A DNA stretch of 64,000 bases from Kiritimatiellia bacterium. Lineage in GTDB: Bacteria; Verrucomicrobiota; Kiritimatiellia; RFP12; UBA1067. This document shows positions 7,806-46,300 of the stretch, one piece after another. The stretch covers positions 2,942 through 66,941 of the forward strand of contig JAZQOS010000020.1 in the NCBI GenBank assembly GCA_045627925.1, given 5' to 3'. The notes under the pieces were generated by a model that was not told the origin of the DNA, made no database searches, and saw nothing but the letters and a program-made list of their open reading frames with translations. Numbering within the stretch: the first letter of the stretch is position 1; every line of letters begins with the position of its first letter. The position numbers were made by a program, and so were the translations under genes.

Positions 7806-7858
7806 CGGGGTGATTTTTTGGTATAATATACGACCAATCAACCATAAGGAGAATGCAA

Positions 7859-16415: not shown

Positions 16416-17189
16416 ATGTTTCCCGATCTCGTCGATCTCGGTTTCGTTCATATCAAGACTTACGGCGCTTGCATGGCGATCGGATTTCTCCTTTGCTGGA
16501 GACTGATTGAAAAGCTGAGCGGTCGCAAGGACCTTTCGAACTTGCTGTTGTCGCTAATGGTTTCCGGCGTCGTCGGCAGTCGCGCCGCCTACGTAATCGA
16601 AAATTGGTCGCGGGAATTCGCGGCGAATCCGGCGGCGATTATTCGCGTGGATCGCGGCGGACTCGTCTTTTACGGCGGGCTGATACTCGCAATCGTCGTG
16701 TTCTTCGCGTGGTGTGCGATGAAACGCGAGCGAGTGTACGAGCTCGCCGATCTTTTTTGCACGGTCATTCCGCTCGGTCACGCCTGCGGGCGAATCGGGT
16801 GCTTTTTCTACGGGTGCTGTTACGGACGCGATTCGAACGCATGGTGCGCGGTCGTGTTTCCGGCGGGGAGCCCGAGCTGGTTCGAGCATGGTCGCAAGGC
16901 GGTGGCGGTTTTGCCGACGCAGCTTTTCGAGGCGGCGGCGCTCCTTGCGCTTTTCGCGCTTCTGTACTTCCTTTATCGGCGTTATCGACGTTACACGACC
17001 GGAGTCTATCTCGTCGGTTACGCGATGATTCGTTTCGCGCTAGAATATTTGCGCGGCGATCCGCGCGCGGAAGTGGGGCCGTTTTCCATTGCCCAGACGA
17101 TTTCTTTCGGCATTTTCGTCCTCGGAGTCGTTTTCGTCGCCCTTTCTTGGTATAATATTCGCCATGACTACCGTAACCAAGACCGTTAA
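16416..17189 (+). CDS. lgt: Prolipoprotein diacylglyceryl transferase
   Basis: GGLVFYGG, GRIGCFFYGCCYG, PTQLFE and RFALEYLRGD. Confidence 0.95.
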   Translation: MFPDLVDLGFVHIKTYGACMAIGFLLCWRLIEKLSGRKDLSNLLLSLMVSGVVGSRAAYVIENWSREFAANPAAIIRVDRGGLVFYGGLILAIVVFFAWCAMKRERVYELADLFCTVIPLGHACGRIGCFFYGCCYGRDSNAWCAVVFPAGSPSWFEHGRKAVAVLPTQLFEAAALLALFALLYFLYRRYRRYTTGVYLVGYAMIRFALEYLRGDPRAEVGPFSIAQTISFGIFVLGVVFVALSWYNIRHDYRNQDR

Positions 17190-17574
17190 GTTCGACGCGG
17201 CGCACGTTCTCACCAATCATCAGGGACTTTGCAAGAATTTGCACGGCCACACCTATCGAGTGGACGTCTCGGTCGCCGCCGACGAGCCATCCGAGGGCAT
17301 GGTCATCGACTTCAAGGATTTGAAGCGCATCGCGATGGAGAAAATCTGCGACAAGTTCGATCACGCCTTCATTTACAACACCGCTTCCGAGGGCGAACGA
17401 GAAATCGCCTCGGTCGTGGAGAAAAACGGTATGCGCACCGTCGCGATTCCCTTTCGCTCGACGGCGGAAAATCTCGCGCGGTATTTTTTCGACGAGCTTA
17501 AGGGCGCGGTCGTCGGTTTGGTTTCGGTTAAGGTGTGGGAAACCGCCGAGAACTGCGCGGAATATCGCGCGTGA
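17164..17574 (+). CDS. queD: 6-carboxytetrahydropterin synthase
   Basis: FDAAH, CKNLHGHTY, GMVIDF, STAENLA and VWET; ATG 7 nt after a TGGTATAAT that lies inside lgt. Confidence 0.93.
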   Translation: MTTVTKTVKFDAAHVLTNHQGLCKNLHGHTYRVDVSVAADEPSEGMVIDFKDLKRIAMEKICDKFDHAFIYNTASEGEREIASVVEKNGMRTVAIPFRSTAENLARYFFDELKGAVVGLVSVKVWETAENCAEYRA

Positions 17575-20500
17575 GCGTTCTCGGTGAGCTTTTTTGGGAG
17601 TTTCTTAAAATCGCCCTGACGGTAATCGGAGGCGGCTACGCCATTCTCGCAGTCGCCGACGACGTTTTCACGAAGAAGGGTTGGACGAAGGAAGGGGAGA
17701 TCACGGATGAGATCTCCGTCTTTCAGATGATTCCCGGGCTTATCGCGACGCATACCGCGGTCTATGTGGGGCGAAAAAAGGCGGGTATCGCTGGAGCGAT
17801 GGTCGCCGTTTTGGCGGTGGCGCTGCCGACCATTGCGCTTTTTACGCTCGTCGCCGTCTATTATGATTCAATTCCGGTTGAAAACGCGTATTTGAAGTCG
17901 GTTTTCGTCGGGCTTCGTTCGGCGCTCACGGGCATCATCGCCTCCGCGGTAATCGGCGGCTGGCGACGCAATTTGAAGGATGTCTTTTCCTACGCGGTGA
18001 TGGCGCTCGCGGCGTTCGGGAGCCTGTATTTCGGGGTTGCGCCGACGGTTTTGGGGGCGATGGTCTTGGGACTCGCCTGGGAGTTCGGCGGCGGAAAGTT
18101 CCGCTCGTCGGCGCTGGCATTTCTCGTGTTCCTCAAGTACGGCGTTCTTTGTCTGGGCGGCGGCTTCGTGCTCATCCCGATGTACATCGAGGATTTCGTC
18201 GGGCCTTCGGCCGCGTTTTTGCAAATCTCGGCGGAGGAATTCTCCAACGTGATGGCGCTCGCCCAAATGACGCCGGGGCCGGTGGGAGTGAACGCGGCGA
18301 CCTATTTCGGCTTTCGGCTCGGCGGCGCGGGCGGCGCGGTACTCGCCTCGCTTTGCCTCGTCTTGCCGGGGTCGGTGCTCGTCTATCTCGCCTTGAGTTC
18401 GCTCGATCGCTTCCGCGAAAGTCGCATTGTCAGGGGCGTCTTCCGCGCTCTTCGGCCGACCGCCGTCGCGTTGATGCTCGTCGCCCTCGCCGCTTTCGCG
18501 AAAACGAGCGTGCTGGACGGTGAAAACAATTTCAACATTGTTTCCGCCATAATTGCTATAATATCAGGAATTATGATTATGAAAAAGAAACTCAACGTCG
18601 TTCTCGTAATTCTTCTTTCCGCGTTCGTCGCCGGCATCGCCCGCGCGGATGGAATCACCGCCGAGGATTTCCCCGACGCCGATTCGGTTTTGGTCGACGA
18701 AACGGAAAGCGTCGTTTACCGCGTTGACGGCACGTACGACTCGACCTGCGAGTGCTGGGTGAAGATTTTGACCGAGAAGGGTCGACGCGAGGAAGGAACG
18801 TTTACGCTCCATTATTCGCGTCGATACGGTAGTGCGAAACTTCTCTACGTCGGGGCGATTGACGAAAACGGAGTCGAGCGCGAAATCGACGTCTCCTCGA
18901 CCACCGTCGACACTACCGACAACTCGTCGATGAAGGATAACATCTACGACCCGATGGATCGTCGCATTTCTTGCGCGATTCCCGGTCTCAGGGTCGGCGA
19001 CACGCTGCATCTCAAGTACACTCGCGGCAGTTTCAGCCCGCGTTGCGAGGGGAAGTGGGCGGATATTTCGATTATGGAATGGACGAGCCCGTTCGTCAAG
19101 CGGACGTACACCATTCTTTCTCCGAAGGAGCTTCCGCTGAAGAAGATCGCCGTTCGCAATCCGCGCGGCAACGTCAGGGAAACGCACGAAACGCTATCGG
19201 ACGGATCGGTTCGCCACACCTTCGTCTGCGAGAACGCGAAGCAGATTTTCGCCGAGCCCGATATGCCGCGAATGGAGACCCAGGTTCAGCACGTGCGCGT
19301 CTCCACCGCCGAAAACTGGCAGGAAATCTCGAAGTGGTATTGGGATCTTTGCGCTCCGCATCTCGCCCGTACCAACGAGGCGATCACCAACAAGGTGGAG
19401 GAGCTCGGCCACGATATCCGCTCGATCTTCAAGTTCGTTTCGCAGGAAGTCAGGTACATGGGTCTTACGATGGAGGATACCTCGCCCGGCTTCGCGCCGC
19501 ACGACGTGGACATTACCTTCAACAATCGCTACGGCGTTTGTCGCGACAAGGGCGCGCTCCTCGTCGCGATGCTGCGCCTCGCCGGTTTCGAGGCGTTTCC
19601 CGTCCTCATTCACGCGGGCGCGAAGCACGACCCGGAGATTCCCCAGCCGTTCTTCAACCACGCCGTCGTCGCGGTCGACAAGGGCAATCGCGAGTACGAG
19701 CTCATGGATCCGACGAACGAGAACGCGAAGGATCTCTTTCCGGCGTATCTTTGCGACAAGAGCTTCCTCGTCTGTCGTCCGGACGGCGAGACGTTGCTCA
19801 CTTCGCCGGTGCCGAGCGCCGAGCACAACACGCTCAAGGTCGTCTCCAAGGGGCGGCTTTCGAGCGACGGCTCGATGGTTCTCGACAACGACATCCTCTT
19901 CGGCGGCATCAACGACACCATCTATCGCCATTCGTTCGTGACCAAGAAGCCGGCGGATCGCGTCAAGTACTTCGAGCGAGTGGTAAAGCGGCTTTCCCCG
20001 GGCGCGGAGCTTTTGAAGTGCGAGATCGAGCCGGAGGACATGCGCGATACCGACGTTCCGATCCACGTTCGGCTTTCCGCGAAGCTTCCGGAGATGCTGC
20101 TTTTTGGAGAGAGCCGCGACGAGTTGACGGTTCCCTACATCAGCCGCATCTTCGGCATGGCGAATTTCCTTTTCGCGGACAACACTTCGCTCGACAAGCG
20201 CGTTTTTCCGCTCGACATCGACACCACCGCGGGCTTGGACGAAACGATCGAAATCGATCTCGGAACCGCAGTCGGCGAGGCGAAGGAGCTGCCGACGACC
20301 ACGGTCACGAACGGCGGCTACGACTATTATCGGACTTTCAGCGTCGAGGGACGCACGCTCAAGTCCGAGCGCAAACTGAAGATTACCAAGGTCGAGTTTT
20401 CGCCGGAGGAATACGTTACCTTGAAGAACAATCTCAAGCTCGTCGAGGCGGCGGAGCGCAAGCGCCCCGTCTTCACCAAGGGATTGCTCGCCGAGGCCGA

Positions 20501-22196
20501 CGTCCATTACATGCTCGAAAAGACCGAGGTGGACATCAAGTCCGACAAGGAGTGGAAGGAGACCGAGACGATCGAGAAGGAGATATTGAGCTACGACGGC
20601 AAGAAAAGCTCCGCCGAGCTGAAGATCGCCTTCACGCCTTGCGTAGAGGCGCTGGACGTCGTGAGCGCGGTCGTTTCCAACAAGGACGGACGGGTGTATC
20701 AGGTCTCGGATCGCGAGATGAACGTAATGGATTGCGGCTGGGCGGCTTCGGCGCCTCGTTACCCCGCCTCGAAGACGCTAATCGTCAACCTTCCCTCGGT
20801 CGAAATCGGTAGCGTCATCTCCTACACCATCGTTCATTCGGTAACCAACGCGCCGACGCCGTATTGCGCGGTTTTCGGCTTCGATGCGCACGAGCCGTTG
20901 GATTGCCGCGTCGTTCGAATCGACGATTGGAAACGCGAGGTCGTCCATCCGAAGCAAATCGCGAACGAGCCGGGTCAGCCGTTCGGGCCGCTTTGGCGCG
21001 ATCAGATGATCGTCACCAGGGCCAAGTTCGCGCCGATCGACCTCAAAGTCGGCGAGGCGGAGCTCGAAAGCGGCGAGAAGGACATGAAGGAAATTCGCGA
21101 CTGGATGGCTCGGCACGTTCGGGTCGCGGGGCCGGCGATGTACGAGTTGCCGCTTGAATTGCAGCTTACCGATCCCGAAACCGTAATCAAGGAGCATTAC
21201 GGCACTCGTCTCGACTACGTGCGTACGCTGTGCGCGCTTTTGCGGGGCGCGGGCTACGAGGCGGACGTCGTCCTTACGGCGGCGAACGGCGGCGATCCCG
21301 ACGAAGTCAGACGGCGCATGAAATTCGAGAAGCCCGACGTGCGCGCGTTCTCGATCGCACTTTGCCGTGTCAGGATTCGCGAAGGCGGATTCCTCGGTTT
21401 TGGTGGCGAGACGAAGGAGTACTTCCTCGGCACGGAAAACGAATACACGCCGCTCGGAGCGAGCATGTACGCGGGAAGCGATTACTTCGATCCCGAAACG
21501 TGCGAGTTCGGCGTCGTTACGGTTCCCGACGTCAGGCTCGGCAGCATGGACGGCGAAAAGACGGTCATCGACATCAAGGAGGACGGTTCGGCGGAGATCT
21601 CGATCGAGTCCGTGACTTGGGGTCACGCGGTTGGTGCGTTCCGCAAGACCTTCGCGGAGATTTTACCCGAAGACCGCAGTCGCCTCCACCAGTCACTGCT
21701 CGGTTCGATTTCCCAGGCGGCGAGCGCAATCGGAGACTTGGAGACGGATCTCGAGGGCTATCCTGCCAAACGGCGTTTCGCCTGCAAGGTTCCGGATTAC
21801 GCGATGGTCTCCGGCGGTACGATTACGTTGCAGGCGCAATCGCTCCTTTCGACGATTCCCGCCTTCACCGGCAAGGTTCGCAAGACGCCGTTTGCGGTGA
21901 GCGCGCAGGGCGAGGCGTGGGAGGAGGTCGTCGTGCGCTTCCCGAAGGGCTATACCATAATCGAGCATTTGCCGGATTCGTTCGTTTTCGCCGATCCTCA
22001 CGACGCGAACAAGATTTGGCTAACGAACAAGGTCTCGAAGAGCGAAAAGGACGGGGTAGTCGAAGTTAGCGTTTTCCGCAAGGTCATGGGACGCAAGTAC
22101 ACGTACTTCACCCCCGACTACATCGAGCTCGTGAACGACCGCAGTCGCATCGCCGATTCGCGCGCCAATCGAACGATCGTAGTCAGAAAACCGTAG
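17571..22196 (+). CDS. Chromate transporter (two CHR domains) in frame with a DUF3857/transglutaminase-like protein
   Basis: CHR motifs IGGGYA/QMIPG and LGGGFV/QMTPGPVGVNAATYFG, then a transglutaminase triad (GVCRDKG, FNHAV, LMDPT) and a second module lacking the Cys; no stop in between. Confidence 0.88.
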   Translation: MSVLGELFWEFLKIALTVIGGGYAILAVADDVFTKKGWTKEGEITDEISVFQMIPGLIATHTAVYVGRKKAGIAGAMVAVLAVALPTIALFTLVAVYYDSIPVENAYLKSVFVGLRSALTGIIASAVIGGWRRNLKDVFSYAVMALAAFGSLYFGVAPTVLGAMVLGLAWEFGGGKFRSSALAFLVFLKYGVLCLGGGFVLIPMYIEDFVGPSAAFLQISAEEFSNVMALAQMTPGPVGVNAATYFGFRLGGAGGAVLASLCLVLPGSVLVYLALSSLDRFRESRIVRGVFRALRPTAVALMLVALAAFAKTSVLDGENNFNIVSAIIAIISGIMIMKKKLNVVLVILLSAFVAGIARADGITAEDFPDADSVLVDETESVVYRVDGTYDSTCECWVKILTEKGRREEGTFTLHYSRRYGSAKLLYVGAIDENGVEREIDVSSTTVDTTDNSSMKDNIYDPMDRRISCAIPGLRVGDTLHLKYTRGSFSPRCEGKWADISIMEWTSPFVKRTYTILSPKELPLKKIAVRNPRGNVRETHETLSDGSVRHTFVCENAKQIFAEPDMPRMETQVQHVRVSTAENWQEISKWYWDLCAPHLARTNEAITNKVEELGHDIRSIFKFVSQEVRYMGLTMEDTSPGFAPHDVDITFNNRYGVCRDKGALLVAMLRLAGFEAFPVLIHAGAKHDPEIPQPFFNHAVVAVDKGNREYELMDPTNENAKDLFPAYLCDKSFLVCRPDGETLLTSPVPSAEHNTLKVVSKGRLSSDGSMVLDNDILFGGINDTIYRHSFVTKKPADRVKYFERVVKRLSPGAELLKCEIEPEDMRDTDVPIHVRLSAKLPEMLLFGESRDELTVPYISRIFGMANFLFADNTSLDKRVFPLDIDTTAGLDETIEIDLGTAVGEAKELPTTTVTNGGYDYYRTFSVEGRTLKSERKLKITKVEFSPEEYVTLKNNLKLVEAAERKRPVFTKGLLAEADVHYMLEKTEVDIKSDKEWKETETIEKEILSYDGKKSSAELKIAFTPCVEALDVVSAVVSNKDGRVYQVSDREMNVMDCGWAASAPRYPASKTLIVNLPSVEIGSVISYTIVHSVTNAPTPYCAVFGFDAHEPLDCRVVRIDDWKREVVHPKQIANEPGQPFGPLWRDQMIVTRAKFAPIDLKVGEAELESGEKDMKEIRDWMARHVRVAGPAMYELPLELQLTDPETVIKEHYGTRLDYVRTLCALLRGAGYEADVVLTAANGGDPDEVRRRMKFEKPDVRAFSIALCRVRIREGGFLGFGGETKEYFLGTENEYTPLGASMYAGSDYFDPETCEFGVVTVPDVRLGSMDGEKTVIDIKEDGSAEISIESVTWGHAVGAFRKTFAEILPEDRSRLHQSLLGSISQAASAIGDLETDLEGYPAKRRFACKVPDYAMVSGGTITLQAQSLLSTIPAFTGKVRKTPFAVSAQGEAWEEVVVRFPKGYTIIEHLPDSFVFADPHDANKIWLTNKVSKSEKDGVVEVSVFRKVMGRKYTYFTPDYIELVNDRSRIADSRANRTIVVRKP
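18554..18562 (+). promoter_or_regulatory. Internal extended -10 box for a nested start at 18573/18579
   Basis: TGCTATAAT in an AT-rich patch, 10 nt before an in-frame ATG. Confidence 0.65.
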
Positions 22197-27741: not shown

Positions 27742-27983
27742 TCTACGCAAAATCGACTCCCTATTTTGCCAAAAAGTTCGTTTCCTTGCCATCATCTGTT
27801 ACAGCCGTTTAAGTGCGAGTATTATAGCACAGCCTTCGCCATTCGTCTAACGACAACTTTGGACGAGACACCTACTGGCAAGAAAACGAACTTTTTTCGG
27901 ACATCCTATTTCCTACCCGAATCTGGTCGTACAGACAAGAAAACGAACTTTCCCTATTTATCCGAAAGTCCTCTGCATTGACC

Positions 27984-29160: not shown

Positions 29161-29300
29161 TCCTCCTACGCGACTTCGTCGACTACGGAGGACACCATCC
29201 TTCGTCCGCTTCGGATGGCCAACCATCCTTCGCAAACAGCATCTACCTTCCTTTGGCCTGCCATCCGTAGCCAAACAGCTTGCTGTTTGCGAAGGATGGT
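29161..29300. repeat. Cluster of REP-like hairpins between ssrA and the GIY-YIG gene
   Basis: Hairpins at 29161-29192, 29196-29219 and 29261-29299; perfect 20-bp inverted repeat 29222-29241/29281-29300. Confidence 0.8.
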
Positions 29301-29649
29301 GGAGGTGAGGGGAGTCGAACCCCTGTCCGAAACGGTATCACCCAAGCGTCTACGCGTGTAGTCTGCCTTTAATCTCGAAATGGGCAAGCGGACAAACGCG
29401 CTAAGCTCAATTCATCCGCTTGATTCGGCACCCTGCAGCGAACAGGCGGAACTCCCTGCAGCGTGGTCCGATGAATTATGCCTTTTAGGTTATCGGGCGT
29501 CCCCTAATCGACATGCGGCCTTTATTTAGGCGGCAAGAGCGTAATCGTTGTTCGCAATTACAGTTTTTTCCCGTTTTTTAACGAGGCCAACGAGAATCCT
29601 CGACGCGCGACCTGACTTCAACACATTCCGTCGAAACCGGATCACCCCC
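29297..29649 (-). ncRNA. ssrA: tmRNA
   Basis: 5' GGGGGTGATCCGGTTTCGAC, 3' GGACAGGGGTTCGACTCCCCTCACCTCCACCA; tag frame ANNDYALAA* at 29555-29526. Confidence 0.97.
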
Positions 29650-29669: not shown

Positions 29670-29703
29670 ATTATACCATAATTCACGTCCTTTGTGGTAT
29701 AAT
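29670..29703. promoter_or_regulatory. Divergent pair of extended -10 boxes (ssrA / phosphatase)
   Basis: ATTATACCA-N16-TGGTATAAT. Confidence 0.75.
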
Positions 29704-29713
29704 ACTTTGCCGT

Positions 29714-31312
29714 ATGAAGAACTTCGTCAAGATGAGTTTGAATGTGGTCGTCCTGTCGGCGGTCTTGTTCGTCGGCATTGCCATCTTCGTCGCGATGAGC
29801 ACCAAGTCGATGATGGTCGGCGAGGCGGAGCGTACGGTTCGAAGCGTCGTGCGCGCGACTGCGGGGCGCATTGATCTATTGATGTCCGAGGTGGAATCGG
29901 CGGTCAACAACTCGGCGTGGATGGTCGGCGAGCACCTTAATGACCCCGATTACATGTATCGCATTACCCGCGAGCTTGTGAAGAACAACGAGTTCATTGT
30001 CGGTAGCGCGATCGCCTTCAAGTCAAACTACTTCCCGAAGAAGGGCCACTTCTTCGCGCCTTACAGCTATCTTGACGAAAAGGACACGCTTAAGTTCAAG
30101 CAACTCGGCTCCGCCGACAACGACTATTTTATTCAGGAGTGGTACGATGTTCCATTGAAGAGCGGCGAGCGGTATTGGACGGAACCGTATTTCGACGAGG
30201 GCGGCGGTAAGATATTGATGAGCACTTATTCCGTGCCGATTAAGGACGCGAAAGGCGAGGTGTACGCGATTTTGACCGCTGATCTCTCGCTTGAACAGTT
30301 GCGCGGTTATGTCGCCGCGATCAAACCCTATCCGCAATCCTACGCCGTTTTGAAAACCGCGAAGGACGGCTATCTCGTTCGCCCGCCCCGGCAGAGCGAA
30401 GTCGACAAGATGATCACGATTCGCGATCATGCGGCGAACGGCTGGATTATCGAAATCATCTGTCCCGTCTCGGAGATTTTAAAAGGTGCCGAGGAGCTGG
30501 TCGTGAAGATTGTCATCTTCTCGCTCGCGGGACTTGCGCTTATCTTCCTTCTTTCCTGGTTTTATTCTTCGCGGCTTCAGCGCGCCACCGTCGAGCGTCA
30601 GCGCATCGCAAGCGAACTTTCGATTGCGAGCAAGATTCAGGAGGATATTCTACCGCGGAAGTTTCCCGATTATCTTACCGCGCGGCTTCGACCCGCGCGC
30701 GAGGTCGGCGGCGACCTTTACGATTTCGTGGAAGTGGGCGACAAAGTTTACTTTATCGTCGGCGACGCCTCGGGGAAAGGGGTTCCGGCGGCGCTCTTCT
30801 CATTTATGGCGGAGACGGCGTTTCGGCTTTCGTGCACGATGGGCTTGAAGCCCGACGCGATTGTCCGCAACATCAATTCAATTTTGGTTAACGGCAACGA
30901 CATGAGCATGTTCGTTACGACCTTCGTCGGGCTTCTCGACCGCAAAACCGATGCATTCGAATATTGCAACGGCGGGCATAATTCTCCGGTAGTCGTCGAC
31001 AAGGACGGCAAGGTCGAGTTTCTCGCGGTGAAGCGCAATTTGCCTTGCGGCGTTATGGAGGACTATCCGTTCACCTTGCAGTCCGCCCAGCTTTCGGCGG
31101 GTTCGACGCTGATAGTCTACACCGACGGCGTAACCGAGGCCGAACGCGCCGACCATTCCCAGTTCGGCGAGGGACGGCTCGACGATTTCGCGCTTGCGCA
31201 CGCCACGGAGGAGCCGTCCGCAATCGTCGGCAAGCTTTTCGCCGAGGTGGATCGTTTCGTCGCCGGTGCCGAGCAGTCCGATGACATAACGGTGATGGCG
31301 ATTCGGGTTTGA
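29714..31312 (+). CDS. Cache-domain sensor / SpoIIE (PP2C) family phosphatase
   Basis: TM-Cache (WTEPYFDEGGG)-TM, then PAREVGGDLYD, GDASGKGVPAA, YTDGVTEA and SDDIT. Confidence 0.93.
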   Translation: MKNFVKMSLNVVVLSAVLFVGIAIFVAMSTKSMMVGEAERTVRSVVRATAGRIDLLMSEVESAVNNSAWMVGEHLNDPDYMYRITRELVKNNEFIVGSAIAFKSNYFPKKGHFFAPYSYLDEKDTLKFKQLGSADNDYFIQEWYDVPLKSGERYWTEPYFDEGGGKILMSTYSVPIKDAKGEVYAILTADLSLEQLRGYVAAIKPYPQSYAVLKTAKDGYLVRPPRQSEVDKMITIRDHAANGWIIEIICPVSEILKGAEELVVKIVIFSLAGLALIFLLSWFYSSRLQRATVERQRIASELSIASKIQEDILPRKFPDYLTARLRPAREVGGDLYDFVEVGDKVYFIVGDASGKGVPAALFSFMAETAFRLSCTMGLKPDAIVRNINSILVNGNDMSMFVTTFVGLLDRKTDAFEYCNGGHNSPVVVDKDGKVEFLAVKRNLPCGVMEDYPFTLQSAQLSAGSTLIVYTDGVTEAERADHSQFGEGRLDDFALAHATEEPSAIVGKLFAEVDRFVAGAEQSDDITVMAIRV

Positions 31313-41564: not shown

Positions 41565-41759
41565 TGGCATGAAATAGTCGAAATCTCGATCAAACCGCGA
41601 CGATATGTCGCACCTTTAGCCGTTTTCAATAACCTGCCGTTCTTGCTTCAATAACCCGCCGTAGCCGGAAAGCCGCTCGGCGGCTACGACCTTCCCCCGG
41701 TTTTAGCTGGAAATAATTGCATTTGCCGTTGGTGGGGGCGGTGTGGTATAATAGGCACA

Positions 41760-46228: not shown

Positions 46229-46300
46229 TAGTGTGCGATTTGGTGTTTTTGATATAATAATCGTGTACAAGGCAAAAGCCAAGTTGAAAGGAATTAGTTT

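Follow-up and report, generated by a model that had tools for sequence, protein, structure and literature searches.

The window, a stretch of 64,000 nucleotides from a Kiritimatiellia bacterium, contains an open reading frame in which a membrane transporter is joined to a large enzyme predicted to be exported. This raises the question as to whether one helix can be both the last transmembrane segment of the transporter and the signal peptide of the enzyme, and whether the enzyme can also be made on its own. An earlier note, made from the letters of this DNA, had described a CHR transporter reading without a stop into a DUF3857/transglutaminase protein of ~1200 aa, and this is borne out: the frame is open on the forward strand from 17535 to the stop codon at 22194-22196 (1553 aa counted from 17535), and Pfam finds the domains of both parts. 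The likely start is the GTG at 17571, and homologues start at the equivalent position. The features of the unit are as follows.

17148..17156, + strand: TGGTATAAT, likely promoter of the queD-CHR-enzyme transcription unit, within the 3' end of lgt and 10 nt upstream of ATG 17167, a geometry typical of this genome
17167..17574, + strand: 6-pyruvoyl-tetrahydropterin synthase (PTPS, QueD-like) gene (PF01242, 123 bits), whose stop overlaps the fusion GTG as GTGA
17571..22196, + strand: long ORF of 1541 aa (protein cluster P0002), a two-domain CHR transporter and a DUF3857/transglutaminase-like protein in frame
17586..18071, + strand: CHR domain 1 (contig C20:20527-21012; profile positions 2-165 of 166)
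18120..18629, + strand: CHR domain 2 (contig C20:21061-21570; profile positions 4-164 of 166), the match extending into the junction helix
18726..19235, + strand: DUF3857 domain, copy 1 (Pfam)
19374..19595, + strand: transglutaminase-like core (Pfam Transglut_core)
20544..20861, + strand: DUF3857 domain, copy 2 (Pfam), with a weak match to 3kd4_A

Pfam Chromate_transp (PF02417) matches in two stretches (217 bits against a cut-off of 28.6), and the second copy, residues 196-365 of the 1553-aa frame, continues through KKKLNVVLVILLSAFV. By profile score the transporter part is a member of the CHR superfamily that falls short of the cut-offs for the chromate efflux transporter ChrA (TIGR00937, 118.7 versus 171.7 bits; NF053760, 102 versus 250). 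The downstream part, ~1,180 aa, carries two copies of DUF3857 (PF12969; 107.5 bits, cut-off 24.6) and one match to the transglutaminase-like cysteine protease superfamily (PF01841; 40 bits, cut-off 23). The cysteine of GVCRD, the histidine of NHA and the aspartate of MDPT, which we take to be the Cys-His-Asp triad of the transglutaminase-like family, occupy nearly invariant columns across 35 aligned sequences. A search by sequence for solved structures found none for CHR and only 3kd4_A, a weak match (E 0.0014), for the enzyme part. At NCBI these fused proteins of 1,500 aa are named simply 'chromate transporter'; if the arrangement proposed below is correct, this is a warning for annotation, as the label would conceal that the protein includes a large secreted enzyme and that the gene probably has a second product.

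The fusion is shared with relatives, which the earlier note had proposed to check. PF02417, PF12969 and PF01841 occur together in 48 protein clusters of 45-100% identity, and the fusion is present in 26 of the 117 species genomes of this genus of gut bacteria; among the best 150 matches listed from 301 genomes of the order (53 genera), full-span matches fall only in the same 26 genomes. At all 48 junctions there is a single helix, with no leftover second helix or linker. In this locus the junction comprises three further features.

18554..18562, + strand: TGCTATAAT, extended -10 element of a predicted internal leaderless promoter, in the Ile-Ala-Ile-Ile codons of the penultimate helix, which include the rare codons GCT and ATA
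18573..18581, + strand: ATG ATT ATG, in-frame starts of a predicted short isoform (Met335 and Met337 of the 1541-aa protein)
18582..18647, + strand: dual-use segment consisting of KKK (n-region and cytoplasmic flank), LNVVLVILLSAFVAGI (last CHR helix and h-region) and ARA (c-region)

Comparison with profiles and orthologues identifies the junction helix as the native terminal helix of the CHR family, as had been proposed from its resemblance to the usual CHR terminus. It belongs to the CHR domain because the family profiles match almost to their last position (Pfam, 164 of 166; TIGR00937, 367 of 368), and the 17 standalone CHR orthologues examined all end in a helix of the type KK-x-N/H-P-V-L-L-I-V, followed by 2-12 residues and a stop. 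These standalone proteins of the genus share both CHR domains and the terminal helix with the fusion, and their CHR part is 47-62% identical to it, but their frame closes soon after the helix, the basic cluster is not preceded by a Met, and their genes have neither the TATAAT nor the dip in GC3. The standalone CHR of L070 stops exactly after ALRA and may be a product of fission.

By alignment the same helix also occupies the position of the cleavable signal peptide in unfused enzyme orthologues, in agreement with the second half of that proposal. These DUF3857/transglutaminase-like proteins of the genus and order (~1,200-1,330 aa) are orthologues along the full length of the mature enzyme, with 44-57% identity inside the genus, but use an SD or a leaderless promoter in intergenic DNA, and those examined start with ordinary N-terminal signal peptides of their own, e.g., MRKLLFFTLSLVAIWCVRA before DEEIT, and then the same (F/Y)PDAD motif. 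The junction peptide, MIMKKK-LNVVLVILLSAFVAGI-ARA followed by DG, has the makings of a Sec signal peptide, with a positively charged n-region, a hydrophobic h-region, small residues at -3 and -1 and an exported domain after them. The predicted signal peptidase I cut lies between 18647 and 18648 (between Ala359 and Asp360), and the genome encodes a signal peptidase I. The -1 position is alanine in all 48 fused junctions listed, the column is invariant in 35 of 35 aligned sequences, and -3 is a small or aliphatic residue. In an AlphaFold2 model (pLDDT 77.6, pTM 0.54) the helix spans residues 343-357 and is followed by a 14-residue coil that holds the cut site, and then by the first DUF3857 strand. 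With 15-19 residues, the hydrophobic stretch is among the longer ones for a cleaved signal peptide.

The earlier note had also pointed to a TATAAT-type element 10 nt before the in-frame ATG at 18573, with the geometry of other promoters in the window, and this site belongs to a class seen throughout the genome. The 9-mer TGNTATAAT occurs 18 times in the window, where 0.29 are expected, and 325 times in the genome, compared with ~22 expected from base composition; in 143 of the 325, an ORF of 50 aa or more starts with an ATG located 6-12 nt downstream of the site, and one site of the promoter type precedes the tmRNA gene. Judged by this enrichment and spacing, TGNTATAAT followed by an ATG 6-12 nt later is the standard leaderless promoter of this genome. 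At the junction, TGCTATAAT is separated by 10 bases from the ATG at 18573 (a second ATG follows at 18579), which fits the leaderless extended -10 class, although it is off the genome consensus at two positions: two bases before TG it has A instead of the T of 85% of sites, and its TGC is found in only 13 of 155 sites. It is the sole one of the 143 with more than 105 in-frame open codons upstream (347). A search for sigma-70 promoters that have a -35 as well as a -10 element did not pick up the + strand junction site, as expected, because an extended -10 promoter has no -35 element. In an RNA-library run (X20), contigs cover parts of both halves of the ORF, including one at 18141-18646 that spans promoter and ATG, but these contigs show neither start nor strand and may be DNA-derived. 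The accessible parts of the literature on leaderless translation with Kiritimatiellia yielded work on anti-SD usage.

The relatives keep this element in part. Seven of the 26 fused species, the most distant with 51% protein identity across the junction query, have TGNTATAAT 7-10 nt before an in-frame ATG; in three of the seven (94%, 81% and 61% identical to the window) ATAATTGCTATAATAT is conserved without change, whereas synonymous sites on either side of it differ. Six further species have a perfect TATAAT 42-60 nt upstream, written in other codons (Trp-Tyr-Asn or Gly/Arg-Tyr-Asn), and in three or four of these six, an SD-like AGGAG made up of Arg/Lys codons stands immediately before the ATG; in one more (L049) a TATAAT overlaps the junction ATG. 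The earlier note had asked whether relatives keep the internal TATAAT: one lies near the junction in 14 of the 26 fused species, with the same geometry in seven, and the other 12 have none there; because the fused species are related, these counts overstate independence.

Controls within and between genes locate the signal at the junction. There are 14 TATAATs in 2,340 nt of junction zones and seven in 83,499 nt elsewhere in the same ORFs, a 71-fold higher density, and for TGNTATAAT the numbers are nine and zero. The equivalent zone of the standalone CHR genes has no TATAAT in any of the 17, and its mean A+T is 0.35, compared with 0.56 in fused genes. GC3 in the 10 codons before the basic cluster is 0.31 below the ORF mean in fused genes and 0.00 below it in standalone genes. 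An internal Met is present no more than three residues before the basic cluster in 39 of the 48 fused proteins and directly after the cluster in six more, leaving three clusters (P0018, P0043 and P0044) with no Met beside it; none of the standalone CHRs examined (n=17) has a Met before the cluster. The penultimate helix is rich in Ile, Asn and Tyr only in the fused genes. As a matter of sequence comparison, these data demonstrate selection at the nucleotide level at the junction, specific to fused genes. The proposed internal promoter is well supported, albeit indirectly, by this conservation, enrichment and set of standalone controls, and a promoter inside the transporter coding sequence probably lets the enzyme be made alone.

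We consider it fairly likely that the locus is an in-frame nested gene pair sharing one helix, in which a long product of 1541 aa and a short product of 1207 aa would both be cut by signal peptidase to give the same enzyme. Transcription from the upstream promoter (17148) would yield the 1541-aa protein, a complete two-domain CHR transporter continuing into the DUF3857/transglutaminase-like enzyme, and because of its cytoplasmic KKK flank the last CHR helix would insert N-in/C-out and carry the enzyme across the inner membrane. The leaderless extended -10 promoter in the penultimate-helix codons would yield a 1207-aa pre-protein from ATG 18573, whose N-terminus (MIMKKK, the shared helix and ARA) would act as an ordinary Sec signal peptide. 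Signal peptidase I would cut both products after Ala359 to release the same mature periplasmic or secreted enzyme, starting DGITAEDF, and the CHR transporter left over from the long form would then stop at the same point as standalone CHR proteins. In this model we infer that the promoter is active, that translation starts at the internal ATG and that the products are cleaved. Splitting of the long product by signal peptidase is plausible, in that the topology fits, the -1 alanine is invariant and a signal peptidase I gene is present; however, conservation of the A-x-A motif is no proof of it, because the short isoform alone explains the conservation.

An alternative is that the long protein is never cut, such that the transglutaminase-like domain is a periplasmic appendage tethered to CHR, and the internal promoter, if active, only adds soluble enzyme. 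Terminal transmembrane helices of 15-19 hydrophobic residues often stay uncleaved. What is accessible of a review on signal peptides describes uncleaved signals and makes no mention of natural internal cleavage in bacteria. Retention of the in-frame fusion in 26 of the 117 species also fits a permanent tether, as do the 12 fused species with no recognizable internal promoter, where the long form must therefore deliver the enzyme. Nonetheless, the alanine at -1 and the small or aliphatic residue at -3 persist even in P0018, P0043 and P0044; the cut site of the structural model lies in coil, two residues past the helix; and cut-site geometry and topology are identical in the long form and the pre-protein. 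We regard a permanently uncleaved fusion as unlikely.

A further possibility, which we rate as more doubtful still, is that the AT-rich stretch and its TATAAT are not a promoter, but the outcome of some other selection where the two domains meet, e.g., for a run of rare codons that slows translation while the protein inserts into the membrane, or for weak mRNA structure that favors internal initiation on the long mRNA. The GC3 dip is present in most fused loci, including several without TATAAT, the junction uses rare codons (ATA, 11.7% of Ile; GCT, 9.6% of Ala), and some clades have the SD-like AGGAG before the internal ATG, all of which such explanations would accommodate. However, a pause requires neither the exact 9-mer, with its restriction to junction zones, nor a promoter-to-ATG spacing of 7-10 nt typical of the genome, and three different codon contexts converge on TATAAT.

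The earlier note had asked for reads to be mapped against an assembly error, and contigs of three other studies bridge the junction at the DNA level without indels (X1, 17247-19668; X2, 18048-19668; X4, 18236-18914), which confirms the fusion and excludes such an error. Although the source is a metagenome-assembled genome of 81 contigs, an artefact of assembly or sequencing, or a recent pseudo-fusion through loss of a stop codon in one genome, is extremely improbable given these contigs, the occurrence of the fusion in 48 clusters and 26 species at identities down to 45%, and the single helix without remnants at every junction.

More tentatively, and with rather less confidence than in the nested pair itself, we suggest that a working promoter and start codon are written into the penultimate-helix codons and have reshaped the amino acids of that helix (Ile-Ile, Trp-Tyr-Asn or Tyr-Asn, depending on the clade), that the terminal helix is at once a structural transporter helix and the cleavable signal peptide of a nested secreted enzyme, that the long product is a natural polyprotein processed by signal peptidase I, and that several gains or losses of the arrangement have occurred in a single genus. 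If so, transmembrane helices and signal peptides would be naturally interchangeable enough for one segment to do both jobs, which bears on how signal peptidase tells anchors from signals, and the penultimate helix would show clearly how a regulatory element that overlaps coding sequence constrains the composition of a protein. Because the helix is shared, restoring a stop codon would destroy the export signal of the enzyme, and the two genes would be locked together.

We judge the arrangement to be a variant of what is known from in-frame nested isoforms and from polyproteins that contain an internal signal peptide. FbcH of Bradyrhizobium is a cytochrome b-c1 polyprotein cleaved at an internal signal sequence. 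Like the fusion described here, it has a polytopic membrane protein and then an exported domain in one ORF, with a signal-peptide-like helix and cleavage site between them, but its internal signal is an extra segment rather than the functional last helix of the upstream protein, and it is not known to have an internal promoter making the downstream part alone; cleavage in our system is predicted from topology and motif. The long and short forms of CheA, IF2 and ClpB are in-frame internal-start isoforms in bacteria, and here too one frame would encode two proteins, with an internal ATG as the start of the shorter. The short forms of CheA, IF2 and ClpB are truncated versions in the same location, whereas the internal start at the junction would convert a transmembrane helix into an export signal at the N-terminus, would give a product with no functional domain in common with the transporter, and would have its own predicted leaderless promoter inside the coding sequence. 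A literature search run largely outside subscription journals and supplements found no published account of a CHR-DUF3857/transglutaminase fusion and only unrelated work for 'chromate transporter' with 'transglutaminase-like'; the accessible text of its sources has DUF3857 in list entries only and, for the FbcH cleavage precedent, the gene name 'cytochrome b/c1, fbcH' only.

Within the genus, the fused genes were expected to form a single clade, but for the enzyme tree, with 26 fused rows and 33 others, an AU test rejects this (p 6e-51). The CHR tree has at least three changes of fusion state on well-supported branches, and as both trees are unrooted, these changes could be gains, losses or recombination. 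The repeated adjacency, divergence and fusion of both genes is a hint that CHR transporter and enzyme are functionally linked.

The open frame on the forward strand runs from 17535 to a stop at 22194-22196, and the fusion ORF likely begins at GTG 17571, whose bases are shared, as GTGA, with the stop codon of the gene before it; this start gives the recorded 1541-aa protein, whose N-terminus aligns with those of its homologues. In a Pfam search the frame matches Chromate_transp twice (217 bits), DUF3857 twice, and a transglutaminase-like core once, which confirms the earlier note's reading of a complete CHR transporter that continues without a stop into a DUF3857/transglutaminase protein. The two CHR halves are reportedly of inverted topology, from work on Bacillus CHR pairs. 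Because the NCBIfam chromate-efflux models match only under their cut-offs, we describe the transporter as a CHR-superfamily member and assign no substrate. In this assembly (1.78 Mb in 81 contigs) the fusion lies among housekeeping genes:

16416-17189, lgt, upstream of the fusion
17167-17574, PTPS/QueD gene, directly upstream; its stop overlaps the fusion GTG
17571-22196, forward strand, fusion ORF
downstream of the fusion, rpsP, rplS, and trmD, in that order

The fusion is not an artefact. The junction is bridged by sequencing-run contigs from three other studies (X1, 17247-19668; X2, 18048-19668; X4, 18236-18914) with substitutions and zero indels, which disposes of the assembly error that the earlier note had wished to exclude. 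Runs containing the sequence are metagenomes of animal gut and faeces, from nine studies. All three Pfam families occur together in 48 protein clusters of 1,008 to 1,645 aa (45-100% identity; the shortest, 1,008 aa, appears truncated), which NCBI names 'chromate transporter'. A single open frame covers both parts in 26 of the 117 species genomes of the genus, the window's own included; in most others the enzyme (about 1,190-1,330 aa) and a standalone CHR (mostly about 375-500 aa) match separately, usually on different contigs, and in three of the 117 neither is matched. Where the two unfused genes are adjacent, five pairs are on the same strand and one is divergent. No full-span match outside the genus is found among the best 150 matches listed for 301 sampled genomes of the order.

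The junction reads ...NNFNIVSAIIAIISGI-M335-I-M337-KKK-LNVVLVILLSAFVAGI-ARA359|D360-GITAEDFPDAD (Met1 is at 17571; the bar marks the predicted cut). The second CHR match spans the helix, reaching position 164 of 166 in the Pfam model and 367 of 368 in TIGR00937, and the 17 standalone CHR orthologues examined all end alike, with a basic pair, x-N/H-P/V, about 17 hydrophobic residues, 2-12 further residues, and a stop. Ordinary signal peptides open the unfused enzymes examined, and both their c-region and the mature N-terminus behind it (A|D-D/E-x-T-x-E-K/R-F/Y-PDAD) can be aligned with the fused junction. From these standalone CHR ends and unfused enzyme starts, we conclude that in the fused segment the CHR helix leads straight into the c-region belonging to the enzyme's signal peptide. 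Alanine at -1 and the same layout recur in 48 of 48 fused junctions listed, and the -1 column does not vary across 35 aligned sequences; both proposed resemblances, to a CHR terminal helix and to a Sec signal peptide with an A-x-A site, hold. An AlphaFold2 model of residues 1-610 (pLDDT 77.6, pTM 0.54) has helices at 323-337 and 343-357, coil at 358-371, and the first DUF3857 strand from 372, so the predicted cut would fall in coil, two residues past the helix. The positive-inside rule is stated in a review of signal peptides; the KKK flank should hold the helix N-terminus in the cytoplasm and its C-terminus outside, exactly the orientation that an exported enzyme needs.

The extended -10 element TGNTATAAT is hugely over-represented in this genome, with 18 occurrences in the window (0.29 expected) and 325 genome-wide (about 22 expected in 1.78 Mb), and 143 genomic sites are followed after 6-12 nt by an ATG that begins an ORF of 50 aa or more. 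Extended -10 promoters therefore routinely give leaderless or near-leaderless mRNAs in this organism, which appear to be a main expression mode in this uncultured gut Kiritimatiellia. The consensus upstream of the TG is W-W-T-W. Sites and associated features in the window are as follows:

2947, 3888, 17148, 29695, 45093, 48703, and 60143, among others, TGNTATAAT
29297-29649, reverse strand, tmRNA gene (178.7 bits)
29670-29678, reverse strand, TGGTATAAT, about 20 nt upstream of the tmRNA 5' end
29695, forward strand, divergent TGGTATAAT, serving an ORF that starts at 29714
41744-41752 (forward), 27821-27829 (reverse), 7819-7827 (forward), and 46250-46258 (forward), TGNTATAAT without a long ORF start within 12 nt

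The last four may be promoters for leadered mRNAs, for small ORFs, or for RNAs absent from Rfam. The 3' end of lgt (17089-17189) holds the next gene's promoter and start (TGGTATAAT at 17148, ATG 17167, lgt stop 17189), a further case, in this compact genome, of a predicted promoter lying within coding sequence.

The junction site, TGCTATAAT, 10 nt from ATG 18573, fits this class, and would yield a short isoform, a 1207-aa pre-protein. Of the 143 sites it alone lies deep within in-frame coding sequence (347 open codons upstream; next highest, 105), and it departs from the upstream consensus at one position, with the rarer TGC form; its rare codons include ATA (11.7% of Ile codons) and GCT (9.6% of Ala codons). 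Across the 26 fused loci, TGNTATAAT lies 7-10 nt ahead of an in-frame ATG in seven, three of which (94%, 81%, and 61% identical to the window across the junction query) keep 16 bases, ATAATTGCTATAATAT, identical to the window's while adjacent synonymous sites differ. In two loci Trp-Tyr-Asn codons form TGGTATAAT, which lies 42 nt ahead of the ATG of Met-Lys-Lys-Lys; in four G/C-GGTATAAT stands 54-60 nt upstream (with an SD-like AGGAG/AGGA from Arg/Lys codons, directly before an ATG after the basic cluster, in three or four of that group); and in one TATAAT overlaps the junction ATG; 12 have no TATAAT near the junction. The junction zones, 2,340 nt in all, contain 14 copies of TATAAT; the remaining 83,499 nt of those ORFs contain seven, so the density differs 71-fold. 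For TGNTATAAT the corresponding counts are nine and none. In the equivalent zone of 17 standalone CHR genes TATAAT is absent; A+T is 0.56 in fused junction zones versus 0.35 in standalone CHRs, and GC3 of the 10 codons before the basic cluster falls below the ORF mean by 0.31 (26 fused) versus 0.00 (17 standalone). In 39 of 48 fused proteins a Met precedes the basic cluster by at most three residues, and in six more it comes immediately after the cluster; none of the 17 standalone CHRs examined has a Met beside it. These features are specific to the fused state, and they persist across distances at which saturation of synonymous sites would be expected, which we read as selection for an internal start rather than as a relic. 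An internal promoter for the enzyme is accordingly a well-supported prediction: the proposed match to the genome's other promoters stands and is conserved in seven loci and absent from the standalone controls, with a TATAAT near the junction in only 14 of the 26 fused species. An RNA-library contig over 18141-18646 is compatible with read-through transcription, although it may be DNA and contigs cannot show a start.

At four fused loci of one clade (L057, L059, L060, and L061, in genomes G077, G087, G127, and G032), the basic cluster before the last helix is coded AGG AGA AAR, which spells an SD-like AGGAG(A) 4-7 nt before the in-frame ATG following the cluster; the same codons would then be both membrane-topology signal and ribosome-binding site.

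The enzyme may instead stay tethered to the CHR transporter in an uncut long form (the 1541-aa product), with A-x-A conservation explained by the short isoform, which alone already requires that site. For this reason we infer cleavage of the long form from other points: the cut-site geometry is the same in both forms, a signal peptidase I gene is present in the genome, and in the 12 fused species that lack a recognisable promoter the long form must deliver the enzyme. Cutting of the long form by signal peptidase I is thus plausible.

FbcH is a bacterial polyprotein with an internal signal sequence, and in-frame internal-start isoforms are known in bacteria; these are the nearest known cases. 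The present case departs from them in two respects: the signal here is the upstream transporter's own functional last helix, with cleavage predicted from sequence, and the downstream product has its own predicted promoter inside the coding sequence. Nothing in print was found on the fusion or on DUF3857 function in a search that was thin in subscription journals.

An unrooted enzyme tree of 59 rows, built on the N-terminal 430 columns, requires nine changes for the fused rows, at least two forced by well-supported branches, and an unrooted CHR tree (44 rows) needs seven, at least three forced. A single fused clade is rejected by the AU test on the enzyme (p 6e-51). Fusion and separation therefore occurred more than once, or there was recombination between species; unrooted trees give no direction. 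At one locus with adjacent unfused genes (L070, G086:C21), the CHR ends ...SKK-CSIMTLVLASAAVGAALRA-stop, its final ...SKKCSIMTLVLASAAVGAALRA followed by TAG at the exact position of the fused proteins' predicted cut. The enzyme's own promoter comes after this stop, as do TGGTATACT and the enzyme gene, whose signal peptide is new and longer. This arrangement may have arisen by fission or may represent the state before fusion.

The second half of the enzyme (20544-22196) has the appearance of an internal duplication, with the second DUF3857 domain followed by a stretch, YGTRLDYVRTLCALLRGAGYEADVV, that by eye resembles a transglutaminase-like core without Cys at the usual G-x-C position; Pfam counts only one core in the whole enzyme, and the second module may be inactive. 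The genome has a third CHR domain, located close to the end of a contig in an open frame of 186 aa (L001, G000:C53:50-544), which may form half of a short-chain CHR pair.
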